Shown here piece by piece: positions 4,901 to 40,458 of a stretch of 44,496 nt of DNA (its first letter is position 1; the number at the start of each line of letters is the position of its first letter). The position numbers and the translations under genes were made by a program. The stretch comes from Candidatus Omnitrophota bacterium (GTDB taxonomy: Bacteria; Omnitrophota; Gorgyraeia; Gygaellales; Profunditerraquicolaceae). Under the pieces are notes generated by a model. That model was not told the DNA's origin. It did not search any database and saw only the letters and a list, made by a program, of their open reading frames with translations. The stretch spans positions 1-44,496 of the forward strand of contig JAUYEC010000145.1 of NCBI GenBank assembly GCA_030691585.1. The letters run 5' to 3'.

Positions 4901-7900
4901 TGTCATTTCTCATCTTGGTAAACAAGTATCTTCTGATGCAAGGAGAGCCGGATATTCACCGCGCCAGGCGGAATTAATGGCCCTGGCCTTATTAACAAAA
5001 GCCGGGGGAACGGATGATTGGCTGAAGCTCTATTTAGTCACTTTGGGCCGCGCGTCAGAAAGGATCAAGGAAATATTACGCAGGGCGGCTGTGTCTGCCT
5101 TGCAAGAAGTAAATGGCGATCCCCTGCTTGATAACCGCGGGGCGATGGCGGCAGGCCGCCAATTATTTAATGCCGACCTGAACCGCGCGGCCGATATTGC
5201 TGCCAGGGCATTTATTTATGATAGGAAAGTAAGACAGGGCCTGTTCGCGGACAGCCTTGAGGTGGCAGATGACGGTTATTTAATACCGGCCGCCTCAGAA
5301 CTATGGCAGCTTGCAAATCGCAGAAAGGCCGGGCAAAAAGAATTTTTTATGCAATACGCGCCTCTAATGACAGGTTGGTATGTGGATAATTTCTGGAACA
5401 ATCATCCTAATGACCATGCAAATTTTCTAGTTCTCGTCGCGCAGTTAAAAGCTGCGCACGCGCATTATCGGCAATTGGCCGATGTCAGCCAGCAGGAACT
5501 TATAGGCATGTATGATGTGGAAGTCAAGCTGAAAAGCAAGTTGCTAAACGACCCCAGTGCGTACGCTTATTCAATGAGGCTCGTCGAAATGGCCATACCA
5601 AACCATATAATAAGCGCGCAAGAGGCGATTGAAACGCTCTTTGAGATAAAAAATGAGGCTCTGGATATTTTGATAACTGCCCTGCGTGATAAAAACGAAG
5701 CGGCCTTTCTGCAATTATTGGCAAAACATCCCGATGCGCTGCTGAATAGTTTAGAGAATTGGCACCGTGAACGCAGGCTTGTCGAGCTTGGAGAGAATTC
5801 GCCTGAAATATGGAGCTGGCTGTATGAAACAGTGAAGAGCAATTGGCATAAGGATTCATTTGTGTTTCCTTCATCCATTCCGGATCCGGGCAAGAAGGGG
5901 CTCGATTTAGCGGATTCATTAGGCATACGTTACGCAATGGAGGGAAGAGATGACCCGATAACGCCCGATGCAAAAGTGCAGCCCGGATTAAGCAGGCTGT
6001 ATTATGCCATAGAGATAATCTGCTGGCTCAAGGTGCGCAGCTCGACAGAAAGGGCGCGCATGATAGAAGAATTTCTGGGGGGCCAAGAAGCCGTATCAGT
6101 CGTGAATTCCGCGCCCTGGATAGCCTTAGAATCTATTTTGAGATCGCTGGGCTCGGGCGGCTTCTCCAATGTCAATGCGCCTGATGATGAAACAAACGAA
6201 ATTCAAAAAGCATGCCGGGATAGAGTATTAAATACTTTGCCTTTTCTCCGCGTGAGAGATGGTTTATTGGTTTACCTGGCCGCGGCAGAAGATTTGAGAC
6301 AGGGTGGAAAAATATTCGGGAAGCTTTCGGAATCGTGGGATCTTTACGGACGAAGTTGGGGGAAAATTAAGGCGCAAGGCTTCTCGGAAGCCCATAATCG
6401 CTGGCTCGCGCCTGCCAACCGCGGTTACTGCGAATTGCTAAAAAGGGCATTATCTTCGCTGGATATTGCAAGCGAACCCGAGGAAGCAAGGAATTTTTAT
6501 TTTAAGCTAGCGGAATTCCTTCCCCCCGGCGCGGAAAGATCCGGTGTCTTGCGAGCCTATGCGATGCGTTTGGTAGAGCAGCTTCCTAGAGGCGAGCTGC
6601 ATTGGTTTTTGAACGAACTATCGCGTCAGGGCCAGATGGACAGGCAGATCTATGAACATTTTGTGCAGGTCAGGGTAAAAACATACAGGGAAGATTTCAG
6701 GGAATTTAAAAATTTCCTCAAACAGAACATAAATGAACTTGTTACAAGCGGCGACCTGAAGTTAAGCGGGTTAACCGCCCTAGACACGGTACTTGATCAA
6801 ATACTGAATGAAAATCTCGCCCGAGAGGTATTTGTTGCCATGCTCGGTTCCGGAAAGAATGATGCCGCTTTGCAGGCCCTGCTTGTGCCATATTGGTATC
6901 AGGCTATGGCCCACACGGAAGGTTTGGGATATTACATCATTAATAATAACGGGCGATTGGAGGTGGCCGGGGTAAACAAACCCAGGTTTGTCTCGTTTCC
7001 CCAATTCATGGATACGCTCTACAACATAAGCCCGGTTGTAAAGCTGATGATTTTGGAGAAATTACTCTTAAGCCCTAATGGATTATTACATCAATCTAAA
7101 GAGGCAGATGCCAATTATGGCAAAAAAGAGTTTGCCGCGGCTTTAGCCCAAAACTTGCCGCAAGATGGAGAATTGTCTGGATTGATAAGGGATGTTCTTT
7201 TTGCCTCAGGGGAATCACTGGAGGCAGAAGTGATGTTTTTGGCGTTAGCCAACCCTTTGCTTTCACAGTTTTTGCAAAGGCCCCCATCCGGGATTCGAAC
7301 GAACAACACCGAGTTAGCAGAAGCGATAAAAAATAACTTGAACAAGCACCATTCTTTTTCAGATAAAGTGCTGGCTGCGGTGGGGAGGCATGATATCAGC
7401 GCTTATGCGGATTTCCTGGACCGCTATAATAGCATTACTGCAACAAATGTTAAGGCAGGTTGGGAAACAGAAGCAGGTATAAGCTCGCTATATGATTCGC
7501 TAACGCAATCATTTGGCTTTCGGCCCACAGAAGCATCTTCCAAAGGCCCACAGGTATCCGCGGCAAGCGGCCCAATGAATATAATTGTTGAAGCCTGCCA
7601 AAGCTTAGGCCCTGTCGGCGTTAGGTTCTTGCAGGTTTTAGGGCAATATATGGACATACCTGAAGAATACCAGGAAAAATTCCGGGATATCTACGATTCT
7701 ACCAAGGGGCAGGATAAATTGATTGCCTTTAATACGCTAGACGCTTTATATTACGCTGCCATAGATCACCCGGAGAACCAGGAATTAGCGGAAATAAAAA
7801 AGTTTATAGATGAAGATCTTGTTTCTTTGGACAGCCAGATTGGAGGCGGTTCTATTGTGACCGTATTCTTAGTGACAGTGCGCGATCGTGATGCGTCCGG

Positions 7901-10900
7901 ACACATTTGCGAAACCACGCACCAGGAGGTTTTAAAAATAAGAAATCCCAACGCCGAGATGTGGGTGCGCCAGACGCAGGAACGGGCGTTGAAGATTGTT
8001 GATGTTCTGGAAAGACAGGCGCGCCAAAGAGGAGATTCGAAATCAAAGATTAAGCAATTTACGGTTGCAAGGAGAGTCTTGCGTGATATCGGAGAATGGG
8101 TTATCCAGGATATAAGAGACACAAGCTTTATGGAGTTGGACGCCCATTACAGCAAAGCGCATGAAGGTGCCGTCGCAACTAACGGTATGAAGGTAAGAGT
8201 ATCGCAAGCCAAACGGCCGAATAACAAAGATGTCAAGCGGGAATCTCTGGTTCCGGGTATAACCTTGAACAAGCTCTTAAAGTTGGCTTCATCGCCTAAG
8301 CCTATCGAGGAACTTATCAGGGAAGCGGACGACGCTTATACGTTAGAATTATTGCAGCAGGCAAAAAAAGAGGGGTTGGCCCCAGCTGAAATTTTAAAGC
8401 GCGCAACAGCCGCCGTAATAGAAGATTTTTCCCGCGGCCTGGCAGAACCAGCCTTTACGGAAAACGGCAGGGGAGTTTATTTGTTGCATTCAGACGTACA
8501 CTTTGGTAACGCTATTATCACGCCTGATCTTAAGGCGGTTTATTTAATTGACCGCAATCTTTATCTAAGGATGGATAAAGCAGATGTGGATTTTGTCCGT
8601 AAGATAGCCACGGGTAAGGCCTCGGATAAATTTGCTACACTGAGGGCGATCGTAGACTATTTCCTGGGTTTGCCGGAAAACAGGGGTTCGGTCCTTTTAT
8701 CAGGGTGGGGTTTTCTGCGCAGGTTTGGATTAGCAAGGGAAATAGGATTAAAAGTGCGGGCATCCGGATCGAGCAGCCCCTTTGTGACAATGATGATGGT
8801 CCTCCAGGAATTAGAATCGCGTAACGTAGTCATACCTTTACGGATGAGGATCATGTTTAAGAACCTCGCATCCATAAATGCGATGCTGGCTAAGACTGGA
8901 GCCGGTAATTTCAGTGATTATGTGAAGGCCGCTGAAAGAAATGCCCATGAGCCTCTGGCAGCAGGTAGTAGGATGCCCGAGAGGCTCTCCGCAGAGAGCG
9001 TTATTACCGACAAGCAGGAGCTTAGTCTTTTTGTTGTTCAACATGATATTAGCTGGACTCTCCGGCCCGATGAAGGCACACTGGGCATACAGGATATTAA
9101 AGATAGCAGATTGACTGCTTTATCCATGGCAGAAGACGGCGAAAGCGGGGACATTACCTATGACGGGAAAAGGCTCCATTTTTATAGGGTGAATAAAGAT
9201 GGGAAAGAGTTTTATCTTATTGTGACCGGTGGTATTGCCGAGCCGGATCCGCGACGCGTCCCCGGCGCGGCGGCGCAGGAGAGTAGAACACAAAGGGAGC
9301 AGCAACCGGATAAGCAGTTAGATCAAGATCCAAAGCCACAAATGACACGCCGGGCATTCTTACTAGGTGCGGCCGGCGCGACAACGGCCGCAGCATTAAT
9401 AGTGGCCGCGGGAAGATTGATTAAAGAAAAGAGATTGCCAGTTCCCCAGGACCAGGAATTATTAGATATTTTTAAACAAGGTGAGTCTTATTGGCGGACT
9501 ATTTCTGATGATCCCGAAAATGTCCCTCTTCCAGACCGGTTGGCCTTAGGAAAATTAATGTGGGAAATAGGGGAAACAGTCGATATCGGCTTCCGTCAGG
9601 AAACCGCGACGGGGGCTTATGACGGCGCAAGAAGGTTGTATTCTTCGCAGGAATTGCTAGATGCTGTTTTCGGTGTGCAGAGAGAGGCGTTGGATAGAGG
9701 GGATTTCGACAATGAGAAAAGAAAGATAAAGGAGCTGATTTTGTACCTGGCAGAACAAGTTTTTAGAAAGGAATTAAGGAATCCGCAAGGCTCGGGATCC
9801 GTTGCAAGTTCTATTGAAAGGGTTTTGGAGAAACTTGTGGAAATAGGAACTAATCCCGGTTCCTTTTTCCCGAGTCCAAATAGGGAGGTAATTAAAGAAG
9901 AAGTTAAGGGATTTTCTTTCTATCTGGAAGTTAAAAAGCGGTCTTATATTACCGGTCAATCCAAGACAGAAGAGGTAGTATCGGAAAAAGAGCAGCAAGA
10001 ACAAATCTTCCTAATGAAGGCCAGGCTTGCTTTTCAGTTGTATTATTATTTCCCTGCATTTAAAGAAGAAATATTGGGCAAAAGATTGATAAAAGTTAAT
10101 ATTCATTTAGCCGATAATATGGCGGATTTTGAGAGGATGGGCGCGGCAATGAATGGGGTAACTAATCCTTACGCATTTGAGGTAATAGAGGCGCCTGTCC
10201 ATGGGAGTTATTCAAAAGCCATGCGTAGTTTGAGTTTCCCTTTACGGTCCCTGTATTTAAGGCAATCCTTAGGGGATGACATCTCCTTACACGAGATGGG
10301 GCATTTGATAAGCTATATTTTAGGATGGGGGGATGAGAGGCAAGCGGAGAAGATAGCCAGGGCTATCTTGAAATTAAACAGTTCCGCATACAGAAAAGTA
10401 TTCCCCATTAAAAAAGGAAAGATTATCTTGCCAAAAGCGGATGATTACGGAAGCAGGGATTATTCTAAAAAAGATATAGAAATGGTCTATGCTCCTTATT
10501 CCCCCGACAAGGAAACTTTTGCTAATTTGTTTATGCTTTGCGAGATCGGCACGGATTTCCCCGAAATAGTTAATAGCGGCATTACCGAAAACGAGAGAGA
10601 CGGCGAAGAGGCAAAGGCAATATATTCAATTTTGTCCGCTTGGCGGCAATTCCTTTTAGAGCACGGGTACAAGGGAAATCCTCCATGGTTTAAAAAAGGA
10701 AAATCTTTGTCGGCTGAGGCTAATACAGCGGCTACTGCCGCTCGAATAACCTATGATGCACAGCAATTAAGGCAATCCTTGCAGGATGGCTCACTTGACT
10801 TGAGAGGAGTGGAAGGCAGCGGTATATCGGAAAAAGACCTGGAAGCATGGCGGGCACGCCAGGCACAAGGACAGCCTGCGGCGCAGACGCAAAACGTCCC

Positions 10901-13900
10901 CAGCGCGGCGGCTAAAATTGCAGAAGAACAATGGGGGGATGAAGGGGAAGATGTAAGCGCAGGTAGTGCACGAGATGCCGTTGATCTGAGTAAGTTAACC
11001 CGTATCAATTCTATCAGCGAAATACTGGTATCGCCAAGATTTATTGAATATGGACAAGCGATACGCACAGGGAGCAAGCCCAAAGACAATCTATATGGAG
11101 AGATTGTAATATTGGACGCGGATCCGACAACGGCTGAATTAGAAGAGATTGCGAATCTGCCCTATGAAATGGCGCTTTTCAAAATTAAAGATGGTAGATG
11201 GGTAGTGGGTGTCGGCAACGGCCATAGTCCGCCGTTAAGAATGTATAAAGACAACCAGTTAAAGGCAATGGTGATAATAGCTATACATAATCACCCCGGC
11301 GAAGGCTTAGTGCCTTCTCCTGAAGATATTGGCGCAGTTGAAGGAATGGAGCGCGCCACGCATGTTATTTTAGCAGGAAAAATCGCAATGATTTATCGCG
11401 GACTAGATGCCGCGCAGAAACGGAAACTAGAAGCAGGTTTTGCCGAACGGATGGGTATGCCGGAGGCCGCTTCCGCGCCCATGCCTAACGCGGCCACCAT
11501 TGAATTAAAAGCGCGTTGGGAGGAAATAAAGGCGCAGATGGCGGCAGAGATTAGGCAAACAGGCGTGACCATAAGCGTGGATGAGCAGTGCAGGAGAATT
11601 TTGAAAGTATATCAGGATATAGGAATGGACTTTAGGACTTTGTCTATTCCAGGATTGGTTGCGAGGCTTGATCTATCGTCTGCGGATACTTTTGTTGTGC
11701 CCGGAGCGTTGATTACCGCGTTGGAAAAAGAAGGATTGGTTGGGCGCAGTTTTGAGCAGGCGCTGTTGGGCATGCATAGAGGCTATAAGGCAGAAATCGA
11801 AAACGAGTATCCGGCTTTCGCCAACCTGCTTGCACAACCCGGCAATAGATTGGATTGGCACCATATCATACAGGCAGTTGCCGATCACAAGTACGTCCGT
11901 TGGCTTGCGCGTCAGCTTGGTGCCTCTTACGAAGATGTTTTTCTGCGCTTTAACGCTTCAAGTATCGGCCCGCAAGATCAGCTTTCTTTTGCCGATAAGC
12001 AGAAGGTTATCAACGCCCTTTTGGCTTCTGTGCATAGCGTGTATTTTGATTCTAAGGGCAGAAGTGTCAATATGCAGGGCTACCTCGAGGATTATTACGG
12101 GCCCTTGGGAGTTAAGGTCTCTGTTCGTTTTGAAGAAGCCACAGGGGCTTTGCGCGAAGACGTTATTAAGAAGGCGCTATGGGGCAGGATGAAGACTGAT
12201 AAAGCCCTGGGAATTCTTAATATTCTCAGGGAAGGAGGTATGCCGGCATTAAAACAGCGGCCCGAGTTTCTGGATATCGCAAAAGCTATTGAGCCAATAT
12301 GGAATGCAGAGGTGCCCATTCCTATTGTTTTAATAAATTCTCAAGGTAGAACATTTGAGACTATCATTGTGGCCGCTAAGATTACAAAAGAGGGGGTGTC
12401 CGGCCCGGCTACGGCAGCGGTTGTCCTTCCTTTAAAAAATATTCAAGGGGAGATCATCTTGATGGATGTCATCAAAGATATAGAGACTACCCAGGGGGTA
12501 TTTGATCTTTTGGGCAAACTGATTCATGAATTAGATCACGCGGTATTGATGACTGTGACCGGACGGCAAATTTATCACGCCAGTATATTTGCGGAAGGCG
12601 CCGCCGAAGAATCCTTTGCCGCCTTTATGGCAGCGCAGGATGGGCCGATGAGCCGCAACGGCGTTGACGGCCTTGATTATGATTCCGCTATCAGGTTATT
12701 TGACCGGCAAGCCGATCCGGACAGAGGGGCCGTTCCTTATACTGCCGGATGGCTCATGGCCCATGCTTATCGCGGCGTAATGGGTGAGCAGGCATACTTT
12801 GACTTATTCTATAATCCGGATAAATACGCGCAGGCTCAGCCTGTAGCTGATGCTTTTATAGGCGACTTGGAGCAGGTTTTAGCACCCCGTCGGCCGATCT
12901 ATAGAACATTATTTAGCCCTGTTTCAGCCCCAGCCGTTACTTCCGCCGCCGTCGGCGAAAGGCGCTATGCCGCACCAGAAATAAGGCAGATGATGCAAGG
13001 TAAAACACTTGACCTGCGATCGATGACAGGGGCCCCCGCAGACATAACCGATGACACCATCTTAGTTCTGACTCCTGATAGCGAATACATAATTCGAAAC
13101 GGCGCCCATATGGCAGTTCACAAAAGAGATAATTATTATTGGATTGAAGGCGGCGGCATGCCGGAGGAGCTTATTCGGGCAAGGCAAGAGCGCGAGCGCC
13201 AGGCGCAGGTCGGACAAGGCCAAACAAGCGGCCCCGGCGCGGCGGAGCGAGGTGATCGGGAGACTGTTAAGCGAAATTTACGCGCTGCTATTCAGTTAGC
13301 TGATGCCCGGGCGAAGACCGCCAGCGATTCTTACTACAAGCACAGCCAGATATTAGCAACAGCAAAAGAAGACCTTGCCAATTTCGAAAGGGGTATTTCT
13401 TCGCTGAAGGCACAGCTGGGTTATGCAGACAACAATATTAAGTCTAAGCAGCAAATACTGAACACTTTGCTGGGCAACCAAAATCAAGATTTTGCCAATA
13501 TGGGTTTTTGGGAGAGACGAAAAAACAAAGGCGCAAATGCTCCATACGCAGCGCCTATTGCAAGCGCGCAGGAAAAATTGCGGGAATTGAATGCGAAAAA
13601 ACAGGAATTGCAGTATTCCTTAACAGAAAAAACCGTTGCCCTTGAGGAACAAAAACAAAAAGTTGTTTCTTTGCAGGCCGAAAATGACCAGTTGGCCAAA
13701 ACAAACGATGAGGCAAAACAAGTTTCGTTGGCCCTCGCAATTATTGATGACATGGGGACTAAACAAATGCTGACTCCAGAGGACCAAATGCACATTGTTG
13801 CTCCCGAACGCCTTTCGGCTATTGCCCGGACAGCACCAGCAGGGTATATCCGGCAAACCATTTATCTTGCTGCCAAGGGAAAAATTGAAACCGGAGATCA

Positions 13901-16900
13901 GGCCAAGCCCTGGCTTTTGGAACGGTTAAAAAATGATTTTAATAATACAAGCCCATTAGTCAATTCTTATTCTTTAGAAACATTATCTATGGAAACGGTT
14001 GATCGGACCAAGAAGTTCCTCTCCCAGGCCGATTTTGATAATAAATCCACCGATGCGCAGTATGTCTTTTCGGAAATGCAAAAACAAGGAATCGATTTGG
14101 CCTCGGCCGATTTGCCGGAAACATTTGCCCGTATCCTGGCTGAGCGGGATATCAGGTCAGCGCAAGGCGAAGGCCAGGGGACCGGCAAGGTTTCTCTTGT
14201 GTCAGTTCAACGGGATCACTTTATGGCCCGATATAATCGGGAAAATATTTCCCGCATGAGCATGGAAAGATATCTCGCCTTGTACGGGCAGACCGCGGCC
14301 AAGGATTATGTGATCCATGGTTTTAGCTGGGCAAGTCCGAAATTCCCGCAGGTTTTGGCAGAAGGTAAACTTAAGCCTTCTGCTCCATATCAGAAAACAA
14401 CTTTTGGCACAGGGGCGCAAACGCATTCAGTACATTTCTCTGTTAATGAATCGGCTTACAATAATCCGATCGGTCTTTTTGCGCCAATCGGTGCGGTGAT
14501 CCAAAACGTGCCGTTTCAGATGATGACAAACTCCGAAATGGCCAGCTTGGCTAATGACTGGCCGGTGGCCGGGGACCAAGAGGTGACGCTGGACATCGGC
14601 ATCTTGCTGGTGCCAGACATATTGGATCCTGCGAAAAGTTTTGATGGTCAGAGGTTAGCGGAGATAGATTTACGGTGGCAGAGTGCCAGTAAAGCGCAAC
14701 AGTTAAGCATGCTTGCAGAAGCCCGAAGAAATATCCAGTCTTTGATACAGCAAGGTCAGCGGGTTTATTTTTATAAAGCGAATCTGGATCACATCTATTA
14801 CATGAGCAGCGGTGTCGAGCAGCTACTGAGAGATAAAGCGGAATTTGTTAAGAGGGGCGGGACTGTTGATGAAACGTTTTTGAATAAAATTGTGAATCCC
14901 GACAAACACACTCCCCAAGAGATAAGGATTGCAGGAGATTTGGAATATTCGCACAATGTCGCCTTAACCGATTCGCAGGAGGACACATACAAGTTCTCTC
15001 ATAGCCAACCGGGCTATACAAATACTAAAGGTCAAGGTTTGTTTGTGAAAGTAACAGCATTCAGGCAGGGAGGTGTAAAAGAGACAAATTTTGGTGCATC
15101 AGAAACCGTTCAGTCATCTTTAAATGCCCGGCAAATCAGGGATGCCTTGGATAACGGCAAACTTGATTTAAGGGGTGCGGCCGGCGGAGTAATTACGGAG
15201 GCGATAATTGACGATAGCGCCGTATTGGATTTAACTCCACGCGCTGAATATATCATATTAAACGGCGCCCGGCGAGCAGTTCACAAAGTTGGAGATCATT
15301 ATGAAATCGGCGCTGAAAGCGGCGGAATGCCGGAAGAGCTTATCCGGGCAAGGCAAGAACGCCAGCGCCAGGCGCAAGGACAGCCTGCGTCGCAGCCGCC
15401 AAGCGGCCCTTCCGCGGCGGAGGACGGAACAAGGGGTGTTGTGTATTATCATCAGAGCGATGTTGAGATCGATGGATCGCTAGGGCCATCTAAAACAGAT
15501 GTCTTAGCGGGTGTTTGGTTAAAACGCGAACCAGCTGATCTGAGGTTGCAGGGTAAATCTTTGGGGCGGTATCAATACGTAGTTCAAGTCAGCGATAAAA
15601 CAGAAAAAAACACATTGACCGTTACAAAGATAACCCGATGGGTTGGAAAAGCAGGAGAGCCTAGAGATAAGACTCAAGGCACATTGCAAGATTTTCTGAT
15701 TGAAAACGGGAGGCAGGATTTAGCCGAAAGACTACAGAGGGGATATACTAAGTTGCCTGGTGCAGAATTTTTAACAGCCTTGCGCCATGATCTCACTGAA
15801 TTTTTGTTGCTTAGAGGGTATAAATATATTGAATTTACAGATGCCGGTGATATCGTTGGCCGCGGTTTTGTTGAATTTCCAGCGGTGATTGCCCTTGAGA
15901 CAGCTAGTTTATCAATTTCCGGAAGGGAATTTACTCCAGTCGCCGTCGCGGCGGGAGAAGAGAACCGGACGATTGGCAACGGTATAGCCGTTGGCTTCAA
16001 GACTTCGCAAGGCAGCGCATATACCTTAAATGGGACTAGTACGCAACGCAATAAAACAAGTCATGCTTTTCACGATCCAAAGGATGTTGGTGTTAAGCCC
16101 ACAAGCGAGCGTACTTACTATGTAGCTCCCGAAGCGGCAAAGTGGATAGGAGCGTTCCAGGGGTTAGAAGGAGGTATCGAACACAGAAGGATATATATAA
16201 ATAATGAAGGCGTTTCCACAATCGCTTTTCACAAAACGAAAAATCGATGGGTTAGATTCGATGGCCCATTTAAAATTTCCAATACGCCGCAAATTGGTTT
16301 GTGCCCGCTGGAATTATGGGGAGAGGATTCCCAAGCAGGGAATGCGTACTCATATAACGAATGGCATCCGGGTAATCAAATTGTTGAAATAGTTTATGGA
16401 GATACTCAAATAGCACAAAAAGAGGAGCAGCCGCCAAGCGTCCCCGGCGCGGCGGCAACCTCCGTTACTTTGATCAAGGCAGATATATTCCAGGATATAG
16501 CGGATCGATATGAGGGGGCCTCTTGGGATCCGTCGCTGTTTGATGATGAAGATTATCTGAATGCCGAAGGTAAATATAACCAAGAGCCGGCATATAGATT
16601 CCGCAATAGAATACCGCATTATCTTGCGGCCGTAGAAAGATTAGGCCAAATACGTGCCACAGTTGCTGAAGGCAAACAATTAACGCAGGAACAGTTAATA
16701 TTAATAAAAACGATAGAAGTGCATTTTCGTTTACGTGGTTACTTGTGGTATTGGGAAGAGACGGGAAAGAGCAGGGTAACATTTCCGGCGAAAGTGACAT
16801 TGAGCCGCGCGCTCAACATGTTGTTCGGTCAGGTCAACGATTTGGATCATATGTTGGATTTCTTCGAACTTATGCTGCTTAGGCATGTGAATAGTTTCGC

Positions 16901-19115
16901 TCACCACATGAAGGGAATTGATCTCGGCGCAAAACAAGAAATGATTACAACGCGGATCAAGGATATTACCGAAAAATACCGTGATCCGTGGTTGACCGAG
17001 CGGCTGGATTTTTCCCAGATTGGCAGTGAATGGAAGGAAACGCGTAAAAAAACAGATGATGAAAAAACGCAAGAATTCAGAGAACAAGACGAGATATTCG
17101 CTATCGGGGAGAGACATAACATTATGGCTCACGGGGTCGAGGAGGCCAAGGGTGGATTAAGAAATTTATTAAATATAATTCTGGAAGGTAGATTACGTAG
17201 TAACGCGGCGGGAGAATGGTTCATCGGCGAGTTAAGCGGCGGTAATTCGGAATATAAATCCGGGCCGCATGGGCCCTTTTATGCCGTTATAAATGCCGGG
17301 ATGGAACCTAATACGAATGGTGCGTTTTTATGGTATTTGGTGCCCAACACTAAAGATCAAACCGCCTTACGGGTTGCGATTGCCCAGGCGAGCAGGCAAG
17401 GATTAATTAACTCTGAGCTTGTGGCAAACGAAGGTCAAAAAGTCATTACCTATTCCGAATTCATTGCTAAATATGCTGTGGTTGATGTTTCTTCGGCTGC
17501 CGCTTCTGCGGCCGGCGGGGCAGCCGCTGTCGGCGGAAGAATCTATGATGCGGATCAATTAAGGGATGCGCTGGAAAAGAGAACACTTGTTTTTCTTTGG
17601 ATGACAGGCAAGGAGATGACAGCCGCGGAAGTCGATGATCGAGCGCAATTAGTCATGACAGACGATCAGGGTGGCTCTCTGCGTTTGTTCGGCGTTGGTG
17701 GCCCCGTAGACGTGGTCGCAAAAGTAGGTGATCATTATCAGATAAATCGCGGCGGCATGCCGGAAGAGCTTATCCGGCAAAGGCAGGAGCGAGAGCATCA
17801 GGCACGGGAAGCACAAGGCCAAGCAAGCGGCCCCGGCGCGGTGGCGCAGGCCCGGCCTGGCGAATCGACCGCATCCGTCAAAACCGCCGATTGGGAAAAC
17901 ACAATGACTGCTCCCGCTACTCTGCCGGCTAAGCCTGCTCGGTTCCGTTTTATTGTCCATGCTTTAAAATTATCAGACGATCCGGCCCACCTGGGATTGA
18001 TAGAGCGTGTCCGAGCAACAGGCAGACATGATCCTTCGCTAGAAATAAATCTGCTGAAAGAACCAAAGAGAATATCCGAGAAGCCGATAATCTCTACATC
18101 TGTGATTGATGAAACGCATATTTCTACGTGGGGGTATGGAGGGTATATTTTAGGTGTACCCGCCGATAATATATTAAGAACAGGCTCTCAGTTTGCCGCG
18201 ATGATTTTTGGAGGCGGCCAGGAACAGGCAGACAAGTTATATGCCGAGCGGGACAGTAAAGGGGTGCTTAGCCCGGGCGAGATATTAAAAAAGACCAAAG
18301 ATCAATGCAATGAAGTGGTTATTACGGGAAGAGGTAGAAGCGGAGAATTGGTCGAGATCGAAGGGGTATTTATTAAGATTGATTCGCAAGGTAAACCCCT
18401 TGAGGAAGAATTAGCCAGTAAATTAGTTGCTCTTGCCCGTCAAAATAACTGGCCGATAATTTTAATCAATGGGCCCCTTATAAAATACACAACCCCCGGC
18501 TTAGGGTGGCAAGATCGTAGCCAAAACGTTCAAGATATCTCCCCTCAAGATGTAGCTACTCATGTTAATCCCGGAGATCCCGCTGTTACAACTAATGAAA
18601 GCGGTCAATTGGTTTTTGATCTTGCTAAAGCGGGACAAGGTATTGCTCTGGCGCAGGCCCAACTCGTCACGGAGAAGGCGCAGAAAGATAAAGGCACAGG
18701 CGGTATAAATTTTACCGGCATGCCGATTGTGACGCAGCCGATGATTAGTCAGGGACGGTTCTCTGGGGGCGGCGCTGTAAACGCTTTGCCGAGAACCGTC
18801 CCTGTAGAGCTGATTAAGAAATGGCAAGAGATAGAGCGGCTGGTGAAAGCGGATATTATGCCGTCTCCGGAGAGGCTAAGGGAATATTTACAGGATTGTT
18901 ATGCCGGCGGATGTATGGATACGGAGATAGACAAGGTTTTGGGTTGCATTGCCGATATATTGAGAAAAGAAGAGGAGCGTGGCTGTTTGACTGAAGCGTC
19001 ATTAAAGGAAATTCTGGTTGCGTTGGAGCAGGAAAGTTCAGCCGCGAATTTGGCCGCGGCGTTGAATAAGATCAGCGTTTCACCGGGAGAGCCGCAATTA
19101 ATTCCCGGGGCATAG
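1878..19115 (+). CDS. giant secreted multidomain protein, 5,745 aa (peptidase, JAMM and ABC1-kinase signatures; mostly unknown function)
   Basis: There is no stop codon for 5,745 codons from ATG 1878 to TAG 19115. It has an N-terminal signal peptide and several catalytic motifs (listed as sub-features), and a hairpin plus T-tract follows downstream. An ORF this long cannot arise by chance. Confidence 0.9.
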   Translation: MIKITVRKIYKILTILLCFLLCFEQSGFAQVAGQLDISGYLTQLRQSWTTDKFRPLHLRYLSYDNLNNTFKLLLDKGDQSKDSVGTGLKPVPTTNGDSAPVGTEHRSVPNIETETKTLLNYFFIGVSLPNDTFWVNLRPDSPDNMIDPLLASTDVGKILLEADVQLKKDTAKWTSPDSPEGREYWDKLYQKAGEIFGSENITIPTLTRPWIVPDEIIIRESDTNAYIYKATLKVMLEEDYLNNNGRDGFETRPYNFDDPRLKELNVYSSQLIRELIIPKLTKEINISKRYAPLRQVYYSLIMAQWFKQKFYGLGGLYSSLIDKRDLSGLTSKEQWSKDTYFAAYQKSFKDGEYNFKEPVRTLFGQSIRSYFSGGCAITGDSVAAAYATGGRITAGANRRLPPELAKNGRFVDGKGGTPDDLALSGASPSQSVAAPSAQTAIKTATQNKDVRYFKLGDVICGAYDPVDGQMYFDFDAIKKALPDITKAQAVNLLYLHEAFHEVIDRVGIVIENEEALVNALAKEKLNITLTTEENGALAACRGGEAYKHLQGDAKGLLDYKPFAAEKIGTFEDPIGDFMLNLQRILPGAAFNKVQAAVFTQEFIKKLEGHGARFRTATMEAPADEATSITGTAAEEIDVTSYAESANGANGQEPRDGGRLKLRPLREDLSKMKLEADDLLPVGLGDSGADIAMRQKIAKIMNGLTVNIVFDQAREEEKYVYAQDVGSEWVNSQVKSLAARDEDMYKVGRALESALEQNIQFQIEKKILSYCQQNSRFLSRQHPLVEALQAYLDRTADPGKPKARLFVAIDGTEAMGFSFGNSIVVNLALIAALDTIDEAVSVLYHEQQHHERYWDRGSLGRGGVFAFINDISKSRLQEHEADLVTPEKLARVGLNTSALSDALLKIAGVRSQQDMTHGNVSRRVLANLIWHKKIDLEGGVTDGRAQVNIPMPSDWRPAEILPNVNERLLADGMSDFRRAVAEAPVDMLLGVLKSLVEKTGADNIDKLLFVISHLGKQVSSDARRAGYSPRQAELMALALLTKAGGTDDWLKLYLVTLGRASERIKEILRRAAVSALQEVNGDPLLDNRGAMAAGRQLFNADLNRAADIAARAFIYDRKVRQGLFADSLEVADDGYLIPAASELWQLANRRKAGQKEFFMQYAPLMTGWYVDNFWNNHPNDHANFLVLVAQLKAAHAHYRQLADVSQQELIGMYDVEVKLKSKLLNDPSAYAYSMRLVEMAIPNHIISAQEAIETLFEIKNEALDILITALRDKNEAAFLQLLAKHPDALLNSLENWHRERRLVELGENSPEIWSWLYETVKSNWHKDSFVFPSSIPDPGKKGLDLADSLGIRYAMEGRDDPITPDAKVQPGLSRLYYAIEIICWLKVRSSTERARMIEEFLGGQEAVSVVNSAPWIALESILRSLGSGGFSNVNAPDDETNEIQKACRDRVLNTLPFLRVRDGLLVYLAAAEDLRQGGKIFGKLSESWDLYGRSWGKIKAQGFSEAHNRWLAPANRGYCELLKRALSSLDIASEPEEARNFYFKLAEFLPPGAERSGVLRAYAMRLVEQLPRGELHWFLNELSRQGQMDRQIYEHFVQVRVKTYREDFREFKNFLKQNINELVTSGDLKLSGLTALDTVLDQILNENLAREVFVAMLGSGKNDAALQALLVPYWYQAMAHTEGLGYYIINNNGRLEVAGVNKPRFVSFPQFMDTLYNISPVVKLMILEKLLLSPNGLLHQSKEADANYGKKEFAAALAQNLPQDGELSGLIRDVLFASGESLEAEVMFLALANPLLSQFLQRPPSGIRTNNTELAEAIKNNLNKHHSFSDKVLAAVGRHDISAYADFLDRYNSITATNVKAGWETEAGISSLYDSLTQSFGFRPTEASSKGPQVSAASGPMNIIVEACQSLGPVGVRFLQVLGQYMDIPEEYQEKFRDIYDSTKGQDKLIAFNTLDALYYAAIDHPENQELAEIKKFIDEDLVSLDSQIGGGSIVTVFLVTVRDRDASGHICETTHQEVLKIRNPNAEMWVRQTQERALKIVDVLERQARQRGDSKSKIKQFTVARRVLRDIGEWVIQDIRDTSFMELDAHYSKAHEGAVATNGMKVRVSQAKRPNNKDVKRESLVPGITLNKLLKLASSPKPIEELIREADDAYTLELLQQAKKEGLAPAEILKRATAAVIEDFSRGLAEPAFTENGRGVYLLHSDVHFGNAIITPDLKAVYLIDRNLYLRMDKADVDFVRKIATGKASDKFATLRAIVDYFLGLPENRGSVLLSGWGFLRRFGLAREIGLKVRASGSSSPFVTMMMVLQELESRNVVIPLRMRIMFKNLASINAMLAKTGAGNFSDYVKAAERNAHEPLAAGSRMPERLSAESVITDKQELSLFVVQHDISWTLRPDEGTLGIQDIKDSRLTALSMAEDGESGDITYDGKRLHFYRVNKDGKEFYLIVTGGIAEPDPRRVPGAAAQESRTQREQQPDKQLDQDPKPQMTRRAFLLGAAGATTAAALIVAAGRLIKEKRLPVPQDQELLDIFKQGESYWRTISDDPENVPLPDRLALGKLMWEIGETVDIGFRQETATGAYDGARRLYSSQELLDAVFGVQREALDRGDFDNEKRKIKELILYLAEQVFRKELRNPQGSGSVASSIERVLEKLVEIGTNPGSFFPSPNREVIKEEVKGFSFYLEVKKRSYITGQSKTEEVVSEKEQQEQIFLMKARLAFQLYYYFPAFKEEILGKRLIKVNIHLADNMADFERMGAAMNGVTNPYAFEVIEAPVHGSYSKAMRSLSFPLRSLYLRQSLGDDISLHEMGHLISYILGWGDERQAEKIARAILKLNSSAYRKVFPIKKGKIILPKADDYGSRDYSKKDIEMVYAPYSPDKETFANLFMLCEIGTDFPEIVNSGITENERDGEEAKAIYSILSAWRQFLLEHGYKGNPPWFKKGKSLSAEANTAATAARITYDAQQLRQSLQDGSLDLRGVEGSGISEKDLEAWRARQAQGQPAAQTQNVPSAAAKIAEEQWGDEGEDVSAGSARDAVDLSKLTRINSISEILVSPRFIEYGQAIRTGSKPKDNLYGEIVILDADPTTAELEEIANLPYEMALFKIKDGRWVVGVGNGHSPPLRMYKDNQLKAMVIIAIHNHPGEGLVPSPEDIGAVEGMERATHVILAGKIAMIYRGLDAAQKRKLEAGFAERMGMPEAASAPMPNAATIELKARWEEIKAQMAAEIRQTGVTISVDEQCRRILKVYQDIGMDFRTLSIPGLVARLDLSSADTFVVPGALITALEKEGLVGRSFEQALLGMHRGYKAEIENEYPAFANLLAQPGNRLDWHHIIQAVADHKYVRWLARQLGASYEDVFLRFNASSIGPQDQLSFADKQKVINALLASVHSVYFDSKGRSVNMQGYLEDYYGPLGVKVSVRFEEATGALREDVIKKALWGRMKTDKALGILNILREGGMPALKQRPEFLDIAKAIEPIWNAEVPIPIVLINSQGRTFETIIVAAKITKEGVSGPATAAVVLPLKNIQGEIILMDVIKDIETTQGVFDLLGKLIHELDHAVLMTVTGRQIYHASIFAEGAAEESFAAFMAAQDGPMSRNGVDGLDYDSAIRLFDRQADPDRGAVPYTAGWLMAHAYRGVMGEQAYFDLFYNPDKYAQAQPVADAFIGDLEQVLAPRRPIYRTLFSPVSAPAVTSAAVGERRYAAPEIRQMMQGKTLDLRSMTGAPADITDDTILVLTPDSEYIIRNGAHMAVHKRDNYYWIEGGGMPEELIRARQERERQAQVGQGQTSGPGAAERGDRETVKRNLRAAIQLADARAKTASDSYYKHSQILATAKEDLANFERGISSLKAQLGYADNNIKSKQQILNTLLGNQNQDFANMGFWERRKNKGANAPYAAPIASAQEKLRELNAKKQELQYSLTEKTVALEEQKQKVVSLQAENDQLAKTNDEAKQVSLALAIIDDMGTKQMLTPEDQMHIVAPERLSAIARTAPAGYIRQTIYLAAKGKIETGDQAKPWLLERLKNDFNNTSPLVNSYSLETLSMETVDRTKKFLSQADFDNKSTDAQYVFSEMQKQGIDLASADLPETFARILAERDIRSAQGEGQGTGKVSLVSVQRDHFMARYNRENISRMSMERYLALYGQTAAKDYVIHGFSWASPKFPQVLAEGKLKPSAPYQKTTFGTGAQTHSVHFSVNESAYNNPIGLFAPIGAVIQNVPFQMMTNSEMASLANDWPVAGDQEVTLDIGILLVPDILDPAKSFDGQRLAEIDLRWQSASKAQQLSMLAEARRNIQSLIQQGQRVYFYKANLDHIYYMSSGVEQLLRDKAEFVKRGGTVDETFLNKIVNPDKHTPQEIRIAGDLEYSHNVALTDSQEDTYKFSHSQPGYTNTKGQGLFVKVTAFRQGGVKETNFGASETVQSSLNARQIRDALDNGKLDLRGAAGGVITEAIIDDSAVLDLTPRAEYIILNGARRAVHKVGDHYEIGAESGGMPEELIRARQERQRQAQGQPASQPPSGPSAAEDGTRGVVYYHQSDVEIDGSLGPSKTDVLAGVWLKREPADLRLQGKSLGRYQYVVQVSDKTEKNTLTVTKITRWVGKAGEPRDKTQGTLQDFLIENGRQDLAERLQRGYTKLPGAEFLTALRHDLTEFLLLRGYKYIEFTDAGDIVGRGFVEFPAVIALETASLSISGREFTPVAVAAGEENRTIGNGIAVGFKTSQGSAYTLNGTSTQRNKTSHAFHDPKDVGVKPTSERTYYVAPEAAKWIGAFQGLEGGIEHRRIYINNEGVSTIAFHKTKNRWVRFDGPFKISNTPQIGLCPLELWGEDSQAGNAYSYNEWHPGNQIVEIVYGDTQIAQKEEQPPSVPGAAATSVTLIKADIFQDIADRYEGASWDPSLFDDEDYLNAEGKYNQEPAYRFRNRIPHYLAAVERLGQIRATVAEGKQLTQEQLILIKTIEVHFRLRGYLWYWEETGKSRVTFPAKVTLSRALNMLFGQVNDLDHMLDFFELMLLRHVNSFAHHMKGIDLGAKQEMITTRIKDITEKYRDPWLTERLDFSQIGSEWKETRKKTDDEKTQEFREQDEIFAIGERHNIMAHGVEEAKGGLRNLLNIILEGRLRSNAAGEWFIGELSGGNSEYKSGPHGPFYAVINAGMEPNTNGAFLWYLVPNTKDQTALRVAIAQASRQGLINSELVANEGQKVITYSEFIAKYAVVDVSSAAASAAGGAAAVGGRIYDADQLRDALEKRTLVFLWMTGKEMTAAEVDDRAQLVMTDDQGGSLRLFGVGGPVDVVAKVGDHYQINRGGMPEELIRQRQEREHQAREAQGQASGPGAVAQARPGESTASVKTADWENTMTAPATLPAKPARFRFIVHALKLSDDPAHLGLIERVRATGRHDPSLEINLLKEPKRISEKPIISTSVIDETHISTWGYGGYILGVPADNILRTGSQFAAMIFGGGQEQADKLYAERDSKGVLSPGEILKKTKDQCNEVVITGRGRSGELVEIEGVFIKIDSQGKPLEEELASKLVALARQNNWPIILINGPLIKYTTPGLGWQDRSQNVQDISPQDVATHVNPGDPAVTTNESGQLVFDLAKAGQGIALAQAQLVTEKAQKDKGTGGINFTGMPIVTQPMISQGRFSGGGAVNALPRTVPVELIKKWQEIERLVKADIMPSPERLREYLQDCYAGGCMDTEIDKVLGCIADILRKEEERGCLTEASLKEILVALEQESSAANLAAALNKISVSPGEPQLIPGA
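2126..2156. repeat. family-A palindrome (A2) inside the giant ORF, in frame
   Basis: TGTAGGGACAGGTTTGAAACCTGTCCCTACA, identical to the intergenic copy at 1830. It is translated as S-VGTGLKPVPT-T. Confidence 0.95.
2177..2208. repeat. family-A palindrome variant inside the giant ORF, in frame
   Basis: TGTAGGGACAGAAC-ATC-GTTCTGTCCCTAACA. The outer GTAGGGACAG/CTGTCCCTA(A)C clamp is kept and the inner stem differs but stays complementary. It is translated as PVGTEHRSVPNI. Confidence 0.85.
2610..2640. repeat. family-A palindrome (A1/A2 hybrid) inside the giant ORF, in frame
   Basis: GGTAGGGACGGGTTTGAAACCCGCCCCTACA with one arm mismatch. It is translated as NGRDGFETRPYN. Confidence 0.9.
3363..3377 (+). 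other. HExxH motif 1 of the giant protein (HEAFH, aa 496-500)
   Basis: LLYLHEAFHEVIDRV read in frame. Only the pentapeptide is recognisable and no family can be assigned. Confidence 0.35.
4281..4661 (+). other. M48 (HtpX/Ste24/BepA)-like zinc metallopeptidase core in the giant protein (aa ~802-928)
   Basis: ARLFVAIDGTEAMGFSFGNSIVVNLALIAALDTIDEAVSVLYHEQQHHE ... SRLQEHEADLVTPEKLARVGLNTSALSDALLKI ... THGNVSRRV. This matches the M48 layout: NAFA-like strand, HExxH, downstream E-x-x-AD, and a terminal H-P/G-x-x-x-R. Confidence 0.6.
7575..8610 (+). other. ABC1/UbiB (ADCK)-type atypical protein-kinase-like core in the giant protein (aa ~1900-2245)
   Basis: Three family-order elements are present. 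GPVGVRFLQVLGQYMDIPEEYQEKFRDIYD matches the K-x-GQ...P-x-E-x-x-x-L-x-x-L-x-D helix. SQIGGGSIVTVFLVTV...EVLKIRNPN matches the nucleotide-binding strands. LLHSDVHFGNAII...VYLIDRN matches the H-x-D-x-H-x-G-N catalytic loop. Confidence 0.7.
9342..9434 (+). other. internal Met followed by a twin-arginine-signal-like / transmembrane segment (aa 2489-2519)
   Basis: ...QDPKPQ-M-TRRAFLLGAAGATTAAALIVAAG-RLIKEKR. T-R-R-x-F-L matches the Tat consensus and is followed by an Ala/Gly-rich hydrophobic stretch and a basic c-region. A Q/P/D/K-rich low-complexity linker precedes it. Confidence 0.6.
10290..10304 (+). other. HExxH motif 3 of the giant protein (HEMGH, aa 2805-2809)
   Basis: DDISLHEMGHLISYILGWGDE read in frame. 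No family could be assigned. Confidence 0.4.
10746..10912 (+). repeat. giant-ORF spacer module, short form (a)
   Basis: ITYDAQQLRQSLQDGSLDLRGVEG...WRARQAQGQPAAQTQNVPSAAA. It shares the head (x-Y-D-A-x-Q-L-R-x-x-L-x-x-G-x-L-D-L-R-G) and the tail (QAQGQPA...VP-x-AAA) with modules b-d. The nucleotides CAAGGACAGCCTGCG are identical to module c. Confidence 0.8.
11088..11405 (+). other. JAB/MPN+ (JAMM) metalloisopeptidase-like domain in the giant protein (aa ~3071-3176)
   Basis: MVIIAIHNHPGEGLVPSPEDI gives H3137-x-H3139-x7-S3147-x2-D3150, which is exactly the JAMM H-x-H-x7-S-x2-D zinc-site signature. Confidence 0.7.
12312..12791 (+). other. gluzincin-type metallopeptidase-like domain in the giant protein (HELDH-x18-E, aa ~3479-3638)
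   Basis: LGKLIHELDHAVLMTVTGRQIYHASIFAEGAAEESFA. This is HExxH (aa 3550-3554) followed after 18 residues by E in an F-A-E-G context, the spacing seen in M1/MA-clan gluzincins. Confidence 0.55.
12958..13250 (+). repeat. giant-ORF spacer module, full form (b)
   Basis: RRYAAPEIRQMMQGKTLDLRS...ILVLTPDSEYIIRNGAHMAVHKRDNYYWIEGGGMPEELIRARQERERQAQVGQGQTSGPGAAE. ATGCCGGAGGAGCTTATTCGGGCAAGGCAAGAGCG is nearly identical at nucleotide level to modules c and d. Confidence 0.85.
13260..13748 (+). other. long coiled-coil segment of the giant protein (aa ~3795-3957)
   Basis: Heptad-like, K/E/Q/L-rich sequence without Pro/Gly over long runs: ...ILATAKEDLANFERGISSLKAQL...QEKLRELNAKKQELQYSLTEKTVALEEQKQKVVSLQAENDQLAKTNDEAKQ. 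Confidence 0.6.
15121..15422 (+). repeat. giant-ORF spacer module, full form (c)
   Basis: LNARQIRDALDNGKLDLRGAAG...AVLDLTPRAEYIILNGARRAVHKVGDHYEIGAESGGMPEELIRARQERQRQAQGQPASQPPSGPSAAE. Confidence 0.85.
17538..17850 (+). repeat. giant-ORF spacer module, full form (d)
   Basis: RIYDADQLRDALEKRTL...AQLVMTDDQGGSLRLFGVGGPVDVVAKVGDHYQINRGGMPEELIRQRQEREHQAREAQGQASGPGAVAQ. Confidence 0.85.
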
Positions 19116-20475: not shown

Positions 20476-21066
<591 letters not shown>

Positions 21067-21073
21067 AGTTTAA

Positions 21074-21104
21074 TGTAGGGGCGGGTTTTAAACCCGCCCC
21101 TACA
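21074..21104. repeat. family-A palindrome (A1, TTTTAAA centre)
   Basis: TGTAGGGGCGGGTTTTAAACCCGCCCCTACA, a perfect palindrome between pyrR and pyrB. Confidence 0.95.
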
Positions 21105-21116
21105 GTGGATATGTGT

Positions 21117-22061
21117 ATGAATTGGACAAGGAAGGATTTATTAGGCCTGGAAGAATTAAGCAAAGTCGAGATCGAGTTGATCTTGGCAACGGCGGAGTCT
21201 TTTAAAGAAGTGTCCAGCCGCGAAATAAAAAAAGTCCCTGCTTTGCGCGGCAAGACAGTGGTGAATTTATTTTATGAGCCCTCCACGCGCACCCGCGTTT
21301 CCTTTGAAGTGGCAGCTAAGAGATTATCGGCGGATGTGATCAATATCGCCGCTCAGGAATCCAGTGTGCGCAAGGGCGAGACCTTGGTCGATACCGGTAA
21401 AAACATCGAGGCCCTGAAGGCAGACATCATCGTGGTGCGCCACGGCGCATCGGGGGCGCCGGCATTATTGGCCCGCCATGTCGGCCTGAACGTAGTCAAT
21501 GCCGGTGACGGTTGGCACGAGCACCCCACTCAGGCACTGTTGGATATATTTACGCTGAAAGAAAAATTAGGCCGCGTAGAAGGATTAAAAGTCGTTATTG
21601 TCGGTGATATCGCGCATTCACGCGTGGCGCGTTCCAATATCTGGGGCCTGAGCAAATTGGGCGCTAAGGTCTGCGTTTGCGCGCCGGGTATGCTCATCCC
21701 GCCGGCAATAGAAGAAATGGGCGCGTCTATTTCATCCGATATAGACGAGGCTTTAAAAGGGGCGGATGCGGTGAATGTTTTGCGCATGCAGTTTGAGCGC
21801 GACGAAGAAGCGGCTTTCCCGGAGAAATTGGAATATTTTAAGAACTTCGGTATCACCAAAGAGCGGTTGCTCCGGGCCAAAAAAGATATTATCGTGATGC
21901 ACCCCGGCCCGATCAACCGCGGTATAGAAATATCCAGCGAGGTAGCTGACGGAGCTAATTCCGTTATATTAGAACAAGTGACCAACGGCATTGCCGTCCG
22001 AATGGCGGTGCTGTTTCTGGTGGCGCAGGCAAGAGATGAAAAACAGCCGCATACTGATTAA
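21117..22061 (+). CDS. pyrB: aspartate carbamoyltransferase catalytic subunit
   Basis: ...LFYEPSTRTRVSFEVAAKRL..., HEHPTQALLD and ...MHPGPINRG are ATCase carbamoyl-phosphate and aspartate site motifs. The start is uncertain (GTG 21105, ATG 21111 or ATG 21117). Confidence 0.92.
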   Translation: MNWTRKDLLGLEELSKVEIELILATAESFKEVSSREIKKVPALRGKTVVNLFYEPSTRTRVSFEVAAKRLSADVINIAAQESSVRKGETLVDTGKNIEALKADIIVVRHGASGAPALLARHVGLNVVNAGDGWHEHPTQALLDIFTLKEKLGRVEGLKVVIVGDIAHSRVARSNIWGLSKLGAKVCVCAPGMLIPPAIEEMGASISSDIDEALKGADAVNVLRMQFERDEEAAFPEKLEYFKNFGITKERLLRAKKDIIVMHPGPINRGIEISSEVADGANSVILEQVTNGIAVRMAVLFLVAQARDEKQPHTD

Positions 22062-40429: not shown

Positions 40430-40458
40430 TAGGGACAGGTTTTAAACCTGTCCCTACA
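40429..40458. repeat. family-A palindrome (A2, TTTTAAA centre)
   Basis: GTAGGGACAGGTTTTAAACCTGTCCCTACA. Confidence 0.95.

Follow-up and report, generated by a model that had tools for sequence, protein, structure and literature searches.

Recurrent connector modules at the cassette boundaries of a giant, hypervariable head–cargo–tail protein of Omnitrophota

Omnitrophota are widespread, uncultured, and probably host-dependent nanobacteria with very long, largely unannotated proteins. In one Candidatus Omnitrophota bacterium (assembly GCA_030691585.1), a 44,496-nucleotide stretch of DNA (contig JAUYEC010000145.1; hereafter, the window) contains a single open reading frame (ORF) of 5,745 amino acids at positions 1878–19115 of the forward strand, in which modules of about 100 residues recur between segments of other kinds. 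What are these modules, and what do they do where they stand? A sequence-only reading of this DNA had proposed that they mark the boundaries of independently acting cassettes, and that the short junction at their ends is either a processing site of a bacterial polyprotein or a handle for recombination. We modestly favor the view that the modules are lineage-specific inter-cassette connectors in a Sec-exported Omnitrophota protein of head–cargo–tail type whose cargo is hypervariable, where they would act both as a spacer and as a recombination patch.

All of the modules and junctions lie within the giant ORF. Three full modules, M2 (12945–13262, aa 3690–3795), M3 (15105–15437, aa 4410–4520), and M4 (17520–17867, aa 5215–5330), all on the forward strand like every other feature of the ORF, were 41–55% identical to one another (BLASTP E, 1e-16 to 1e-25); the sequence-only reading had placed them correctly, with limits slightly short at both ends. 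The short form that it reported at 10746–10912 was also present (10746–10913, aa 2957–3012), with the head helix of the module joined straight to the GG-helix, the Q/P tract, and VPSAAA, and the beta core deleted. Of the two copies described as tail-only, that at 16440 is indeed a bare junction (16410–16457, aa 4845–4860, QKEEQPPSVPGAAA), whereas a diverged module core stands ahead of that at 9258 (9090–9275, aa 2405–2466, ending in ...YLIVTGGIAEPDPRRVPGAAA; profile match with a conditional E of 0.0024), and the equivalent copy in a related protein, P0002, matched the profile with an E of 1e-5. We located the junction, [VGS]P[GS]A[AV], at aa 2461, 3007, 3785, 4510, 4855, and 5318, and these six copies compare with 0.11 expected from shuffled sequences (maximum of 2 in 2,000 shuffles), an approximately 50-fold excess, with all copies in one reading frame. 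The nucleotide-level repeats were likewise all found, and in the same frame throughout: ATGCCGGARGAGCTTATYCGG occurs three times (13158, 15327, and 17757), and GTCCCCGGCGCGGCGGC occurs exactly at 9258 and 16440 and as variants at 10896, 13230, 15405, and 17829. The segments between the modules were mutually dissimilar, as had been claimed, with no match at E < 0.1.

In the alignment of nine full copies from five proteins, six positions were invariant, including the GG that closes the folded core, and A5, L35, G48, Y60, and the GG were the core residues conserved over all nine copies. The AlphaFold2 model based on this alignment had a predicted local distance difference test score of about 90 for residues 1–63, in the order strand, helix, loop, and four strands, followed by a charged helix of lower confidence (MPEELIRARQERERQAQ) and a disordered Q/P-rich tail. 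The full connector is thus modeled as an alpha/beta domain of approximately 65 residues, the invariant GG, the charged helix MPEELIRARQERERQAQ, and a disordered Q/P-rich tract ending in QPxS(V/G)PGAA. The description of the junction tail as the ending of the module holds in the giant protein but not elsewhere, because PGAA is missing from four of the nine full modules aligned. The cores fall into at least two old subtypes, which co-occur in one protein. As for whether the module is a known structural repeat, a Foldseek search of the PDB with the module model returned no significant match (best E, 0.65), the BFVD viral models returned none, no Pfam family was assigned to the nine copies, and a search of the PDB sequences with the module profile found nothing significant. 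From the missing structural analogue and the missing Pfam family it follows that the module is an undescribed domain plus a linker, and the connector of approximately 100 residues is a new and very rare domain.

Its rarity is evident from an exhaustive hidden Markov model (HMM) profile scan of 1.84 billion representative proteins, the kind of search that the sequence-only reading had called for, which recovered the module in only five other proteins: P0002 (3,584 aa, from a metagenome-assembled genome [MAG] assembly), P0003 (2,412 aa), P0004 and P0006 (a pair from the same Lake Tanganyika sample, truncated where their contigs end), and P0005 (a C-terminal fragment from MAG STB_56). Those with a traceable source were from Omnitrophota. 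Scans of the GTDB species genomes and the JGI metagenome contigs with the module pattern returned only the already-known Lake Tanganyika contig, and word-index protein searches with the module profile or the C-terminal 3,345 aa of the giant protein returned itself or nothing. The weakest profile match, P0007 (884 aa), has 57-aa tandem repeats (SIVDNGDDTYTVNDGTNPEFIITAKPET..) resembling the beta-hairpin segment of the module; we took it as a chance or compositional match in an unrelated protein.

The relatives show how the modules sit with respect to their neighbors. In three independent cases, the junction is the exact point at which a block of homology begins or ends. The module of P0002 was 77% identical to M2, and this homology runs from the module start to exactly GPGAA, with unrelated neighbors on both sides. 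A JAB/MPN-like cassette (10902–11684, aa 3009–3269) begins in the giant protein exactly at the VPSAA|A junction of the short module, and its homologues follow a degenerate junction in P0002 (48% identical) and a remnant consisting of only the module head helix (GERRYGAEELKRELQG) in L004, a locus of STB_56 (45% identical), in each case in a different context. Another cassette, ALWSRAG..HELRH, starts at the junction in both STB_56 copies (L004 and P0005). This cassette occurs at least twice in the STB_56 orthologue at 74–77% identity (L004 ORF, aa 709–811 and 1981–2083; P0005, aa 208–447), and its repetition is a cassette duplication within one gene. The module-bearing proteins are built on two chassis: the giant protein and the fragments P0004, P0005, and P0006 have the head and/or the GGIDF-type tail described below, and P0002 and P0003 lack the head and have a different domain at the C-terminus. 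The presence of modules on both chassis indicates that cassettes and connectors move between gene families.

The head is a conserved domain with an N-terminal Sec-type signal peptide (1878–3140, aa 1–421), the hydrophobic N-terminus being the predicted signal sequence. When genomes were scanned with the head, 45 loci bearing it were recovered, of which 38 are titled Omnitrophota or Omnitrophica and seven "uncultured Planctomycetales", and some genomes contained several; the head was 53–70% identical over near-full-length matches among these loci and 43–46% identical in the two most distant. The signal-peptide region (..CFLLCFEQSGFAQ; 1878–1970 of the window and the heads of L003–L041) is unusually conserved and usable as a search pattern, and this conservation suggests that CFLLCFEQSGFAQ may be more than a generic Sec signal. 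The tail (18663–19112, aa 5596–5745) contains GGI(D/N)F..MPIVTQP and a Cys-containing helical region, and forms the extreme C-terminus of about 30 family ORFs (E, 1e-16 to 1e-80). Searches of PDB, Pfam, and NCBIfam returned no match for either the head or the tail. The family signature is a signal peptide with a head of approximately 380 aa (..LRYLSYDNLNN..IMAQWFK..) and a tail of approximately 140 aa (GGIDFR.LPIVTQ...CIADILR.EEE), both of which are present in the giant protein. The shortest family ORFs have about 900 aa and the longest more than 3,700, and the tail ends most of the complete ones. Most family members lack the module.

The gene occupies a conserved chromosomal slot. The order SIS, TP_methylase, head..tail gene, PRT, OTCase, and DHOase was found in at least nine other Omnitrophota genomes, and we compared this slot (53–1614 and 20497–23328 of the window) with loci L004, L008, L012, L013, L014, L017, L019, L032, L034, and L049. 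The length of the gene in the slot varied from 2,824 aa in the shortest complete orthologue to 5,745 aa. The positional orthologues shared with the giant protein only the head (56–71% identity) and the tail (41–46%), with unrelated middles, and in the complete orthologues L013 (2,824 aa) and L019 (3,219 aa), the head and tail alone were in common. The exception was MAG STB_56, in which the gene is split over two contigs (L004 and L049/P0005) and has a JAB-like cassette right after the head and a full module further on. Even the close orthologues L012, L013, and L014 differed from one another by insertions, deletions, and rearrangements of whole blocks. Because the orthologues share only their ends and differ by whole blocks, the cargo is hypervariable at an orthologous locus; an invariant cargo, which the sequence-only reading had named as an observation that would speak against it, is the opposite of what we found. 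The block starts of the JAB-like and ALWSRAG cassettes, the unrelated flanks of the P0002 module, and the orthologues that share only head and tail show that the modules and junctions mark the boundaries of separable cassettes, as had been proposed.

The modules also carry a signal at the level of codons. We calculated the same-codon fraction, that is, the share of residues identical between copies that also use the identical codon. Among M2, M3, M4, and the P0002 module, this fraction was 60–78% in the helix and tail part but about 50% in the beta core, compared with 43–50% in controls (the JAB cassette, the head, and the tail) and about 33% expected from codon usage. M2 and M3 share 63 nucleotides at 90% identity, and the junction codons CAG CCG CAA AGY GTC CCC GGC GCG GCG recur both in the window and in a different genome. 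This excess of codon identity in the 3′ part, set against the old subtypes of the core, indicates that the 3′ part was homogenized or recently shared and that the core was not. Truncated modules at the boundaries have the look of scars. From the in-frame copies, the codon identity, and the scar-like truncations, we infer that the 3′ part of the connector (helix and junction) may be an in-frame recombination handle, and it is to this extent that the handle suggested by the sequence-only reading has been borne out.

The cargo includes several enzyme-like units. The JAB-like cassette contains HNHPGEGLVPSPED, which fits the signature HxHx7Sx2D and is conserved in three homologues; its RadC/JAB matches were sub-threshold (Pfam E, 0.025; NCBIfam E, 0.0014; PDB 2qlc E, 0.13). 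Four HExxH motifs were found in the giant protein, against 0.09 expected: HEAFH (3363–3377), HEQQH (4407–4421), HEMGH (10290–10304, 153 aa upstream of the short module), and HELDH...EGAAE (12525–12539, 144 aa upstream of M2). The last has a gluzincin-like arrangement by eye. One or two HExxH motifs each were found in P0002, P0003, and P0005, whereas P0004 and P0006 had none. The cassettes that carry these motifs show no relationship to one another; they had no Pfam or PDB match, peptidase families of Pfam included, and five of the nine across the relatives lie 145–200 aa upstream of a module or junction. The sequence LLHSDVHFGNAIITPDLKAVYLIDRN at 8487–8510 (aa 2204–2211) resembles the catalytic loop HxDxxxxN...D found in phosphotransferases of the aminoglycoside- or choline-kinase-like type, again with no Pfam match.

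Most other members of the family carry a different mark at their block boundaries. The motif [AGS][SG]SP[LIVMA] (typically ASSPV, ASSPI, or AGSPL) was spotted at the block breakpoints of L012, L013, and L014, and many family members carry 5–10 copies of it per protein, where shuffling predicts about 0.1; its narrower form, [AS][SG]SP[VIL], is roughly 20–100 times commoner than the shuffled expectation in most other family members. Carriers include L005, L006, L007, L011–L014, L019, L032, L034, and other head–tail ORFs, and in the L013 ORF, for example, the motif stands at aa 380, 395, 812, 822, 1308, 1318, 2171, 2443, and 2686. Its density was 1.13 per 1,000 aa in the family, compared with 0.047 in 215 neighboring ORFs. 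The motif is often located at the very end of the head and 5–20 residues before the tail, and the fraction of homology-block endpoints near it was 0.158, compared with 0.065 by chance (none of 1,000 randomizations reached the observed value). Its codons vary freely among synonyms, so the selection on it acts on the peptide. The giant protein, the STB_56 orthologue, and P0002–P0004 lack this motif and have QPxS(V/G)PGAA instead, so that in this lineage the PGAA junction looks to have taken the place of an inter-cassette signal used across the family. Such a signal could be read at the protein level by some factor, either a protease or a modifying enzyme. No other recurrent boundary motif was found in the family members without the ASSP-type motif (L008, L022, L029, and L030).

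How might these observations fit together? Under the explanation that we favor, the connector would be a spacer that lets unrelated enzyme cassettes (the zincin-like HExxH units, the JAB-like unit, and the kinase-like unit) fold and act independently. Its nucleotide-conserved, always-in-frame 3′ part would be a homology patch for the gain, loss, and exchange of cassettes between paralogous and orthologous genes, including genes of different chassis, and the truncated connectors would be the scars of these exchange events. Several points weigh against this explanation. The exact nucleotide repeats are short (21 nucleotides or less), which would make homologous recombination inefficient. Recombination was read from sequence comparison, and no event was caught directly, for example, as a strain polymorphism. 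The codon excess comes from a small sample of few, non-independent pairs, and recent common descent of the 3′ part could account for it as well. A conserved motif of 5–9 residues is superfluous for a pure spacer, the family motif selected at the protein level points to a trans-acting factor outside this explanation, and no module marks the boundary at which the JAB cassette of the giant protein ends on its C-terminal side.

The strongest competitor is that the protein is a bacterial polyprotein, in which a protease cuts at QPxS(V/G)PGAA or at the invariant GG|MPE and frees the cassettes from the head–tail carrier; the protease would be an HExxH or JAB-like cassette in cis or a dedicated enzyme in trans, and such cutting is compatible with a role in recombination. 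We regard this as possible but a good deal less probable than the connector explanation. It gains from the position of the over-represented junction in predicted disordered, accessible linkers, from the HExxH motifs and the JAB signature in cis, and from the spacing of five of the nine HExxH cassettes ahead of a module or junction. A segment 22 aa past junction 1 also resembles the N-terminus of a separate exported protein: an internal Met is followed by a twin-arginine-like motif (TRRAFLL) and a hydrophobic helix (MTRRAFLLGAAGATTAAALIVAAG; 9342–9413, aa 2489–2512; Met-TRRAFLLGAAGATTAAALIVAAG), which is the sole strong internal hydrophobic helix and has only a weak TIGR02811 match. This segment may be either the relic of a fused, formerly separate exported protein or a stop-transfer anchor, and if the helix at aa 2493–2511 is such an anchor, all three full modules would lie in the cytoplasm with the rest of the C-terminal 3,200 aa. 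A present-day internal translation start at this Met (nt 9342) was set aside, there being no obvious Shine–Dalgarno sequence upstream.

The most telling indirect argument for a polyprotein is the family-wide motif, which occurs in most other family members at the head end, before the tail, and at block ends under peptide-level selection, although it is not evidence of cleavage. In 10.1101/2023.11.21.568195, moreover, whether the long proteins of Omnitrophota remain whole or are cut is posed explicitly as an open question, with cleavage points not known. On the other side, no Pfam peptidase family was detected at E ≤ 0.1 beyond the sub-threshold RadC/JAB match, nor was any known releasing or autoprocessing peptidase; and PGAA is missing after four of the nine full modules. 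The HExxH cassettes, being mutually unrelated, are inconsistently paired with the putative sites, and a scheme in which an HExxH peptidase accompanies every junction was rejected because only five of the nine are so placed and they are not homologous. P0003 has modules but no JAB cassette, and the nucleotide-level identity explains the conservation of PGAA without selection on the peptide. A bolder form of this idea, that the head–tail proteins in general are true polyproteins in which a secreted carrier brings interchangeable enzymes cut by a dedicated protease at lineage-specific codes ([AS][SG]SP[VIL], or QPxS(V/G)PGAA with the module), is in our view somewhat more doubtful again. If true, it would amount to MARTX-like multi-effector delivery with a new processing code and would for the first time give the long proteins of Omnitrophota concrete points of cleavage.

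Three candidates for processing were discarded on specific grounds. A ubiquitin-like domain followed by GG and acted on by the JAB in cis is at odds with a fold order that is not beta-grasp, with the lack of a Foldseek match in the PDB, and with P0003, which has no JAB cassette. A C39 double-glycine leader does not fit because no C39 domain is present in the protein or the window, and the region before the GG is modeled as a beta strand, not as a leader helix. The C-terminus of the giant protein, ...LIPGA, is not conserved as a junction mimic, its homologues ending in ...VIK or ...VIR.

The factor reading the boundary signal might otherwise be a modifying enzyme. PglL-type O-oligosaccharyltransferases favor Ser within segments rich in Ala and Pro, for example, WPAAASAP, and the A/S/P/G-rich junction (S-x-P-G-A-A here and A-S-S-P-V in relatives) would be a sequon, for example, for general O-glycosylation of Ser where exported linkers are of low complexity and rich in Ala, Ser, and Pro; the linkers would thereby be stiffened and protected from proteases. 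The Sec signal of the protein, the position of the motifs in inter-domain linkers, the Ser-centered family motif maintained at the protein level, and the Ser before (V/G)PGAA in most copies are all in keeping with this. We nevertheless consider it improbable: no glycosylation machinery was identified in the window, the PGAA core has no Ser or Thr, and a stop-transfer anchor at aa 2493–2511, if the helix there is one, would leave the three full modules in the cytoplasm, beyond the reach of periplasmic glycosylation. Least probable, by a little, is that the core of approximately 65 aa is a docking domain, one adaptor per cargo, for a partner shared by all copies (part of the secretion or sorting apparatus, for instance, or a chaperone, or a molecule of the target cell), and stands at boundaries only incidentally; its confident AlphaFold2 fold, its conserved residues across nine copies, and the two or more ancient subtypes in one protein, not simply homogenized, speak for it, but the core is dispensable (short, helix-only, and junction-only forms hold equivalent boundary positions), most family members lack the module altogether, and no structural analogue hints at a ligand.

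Outside the modules and cassettes, the giant protein offers few landmarks. Pfam searches of the whole protein (E ≤ 0.1) and NCBIfam returned only sub-threshold RadC/JAB and Tat-signal matches, PDB sequence searches returned no match, and no tandem repeats were found. An assembly chimera at the repeats was judged unlikely in view of this lack of tandem repeats and of exact repeats of ≤21 nucleotides, which we consider too short to mislead an assembler. The flanks within the 44.5-kb window are those of an ordinary bacterial chromosome, with an SIS-domain gene and a tetrapyrrole-type methylase gene on the 5′ side; directly 3′ is a gene encoding a helix–turn–helix (HTH) and NTP_transf_2 nucleotidyltransferase protein, followed by the pyrimidine pathway (pyr) genes, namely PRT, OTCase/ATCase, DHOase, CPSase, DHODH, and OMP decarboxylase, and the 3′ side also has Fpg and a V-type ATPase operon. 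A 29-nucleotide near-perfect palindrome, GTAGGGACAGGTTTGAAACCTGTCCCTAC, occurs four times in the window (1831–1859, 2127–2155, 2611–2639, and 40429–40457), where none is expected. Of these, two are intergenic, including one immediately ahead of the start codon of the giant ORF, and two are in frame within the head-coding region, at sites where the homologues have low-complexity inserts of other kinds. The palindrome resembles a REP/RPE-like element able to reside inside coding sequence. Downstream of the V-ATPase c-subunit gene, a free-standing ORF of 328 aa (41468–42454) resembles a LAGLIDADG homing endonuclease.

Among known systems, the MARTX toxins (Vibrio RtxA; PMC6315884, PMC5218395, PMC4453568) are the closest functional analogue. 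They are likewise giant secreted proteins, with conserved ends that enclose a central array of unrelated domains (effectors or enzymes), the composition of which differs between strains, as it does here between orthologues, through recombination; the giant protein has such a variable array between conserved ends, its orthologues sharing only head and tail while its cassettes recur elsewhere. MARTX effector domains are released by processing between the effectors (PMC6315884, PMC5218395), whereas cleavage in the giant protein is putative. The giant protein also differs in having no RTX or glycine-rich repeats and no HemolysinCabind domain (Pfam, E ≤ 0.1), with the Omnitrophota-specific head and tail in their place, and no Peptidase C80 (Pfam and NCBIfam). 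It has an N-terminal Sec signal, unlike the type I secretion of MARTX, and a folded connector with a conserved junction in place of unstructured linkers, and its host is an uncultured, probably host-dependent member of the Omnitrophota, not a proteobacterial pathogen.

Polymorphic toxins with PT-VENN, PT-TG, or PT-HINT and releasing peptidases (PMC3482391) resemble the giant protein in that a conserved short domain or motif demarcates variable cargo. Their pre-toxin domains are proposed to be a recombination boundary and possibly a processing site, with HExxH releasing peptidases in cis (PMC3482391). However, the variable units of the giant protein are several, serial, and internal, and its C-terminus is a conserved tail. 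Pfam detected no PT-VENN, PT-TG, PT-HINT, DUF637, RHS, or HINT domain in it, and no pre-toxin domain in the nine module copies; and no evident immunity gene lies downstream, where the HTH and NTP_transf_2 gene is followed by the pyr genes. Viral polyproteins and polyubiquitin-type precursors also combine one ORF, unrelated units, and a recurring short motif, and share with the giant protein a GG after a small domain and a JAB-type motif in cis. The module core, by contrast, has no significant match to solved structures, including those of ubiquitin-like folds, and its strand–helix–loop–four-strand order is not that of a beta-grasp; the context is one of chromosomal housekeeping genes, and any cleavage is putative. 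The giant and long proteins already described in Omnitrophota (10.1101/2023.11.21.568195; 10.64898/2026.06.07.730766; PMC10066038) are closer in origin, being, in the accessible text of these papers, multi-enzyme, largely unannotated proteins of the same phylum with signal peptides and hypothesized cleavage. As described there, they span 10–147 thousand residues, compared with 5.7 thousand here, and they carry dockerin, TSP3, C39, S8, or SecA domains (dockerin, TSP3, C39, or SecA-like in the archaeovorin or dockerin-type giants), none of which Pfam detected in the present protein, which has 5,745 aa and not >10,000. The same accessible text contains no mention of the head–tail family or the connector.

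The architecture described here is a new variant of the modular multi-effector theme. The locus is a conserved chromosomal site at which the cargo of a secreted protein is replaced wholesale between species. Its boundary elements, the connector here and the 5-residue motif in relatives, split these proteins into units small enough to be modeled and expressed, and the locus names specific peptide bonds to look for in metaproteomes. If the cassettes are cleaved apart, the protein would represent a new architecture for multi-effector delivery from outside the Proteobacteria; if they are not, it would still be a clear natural case of domain shuffling at marked, in-frame boundaries.

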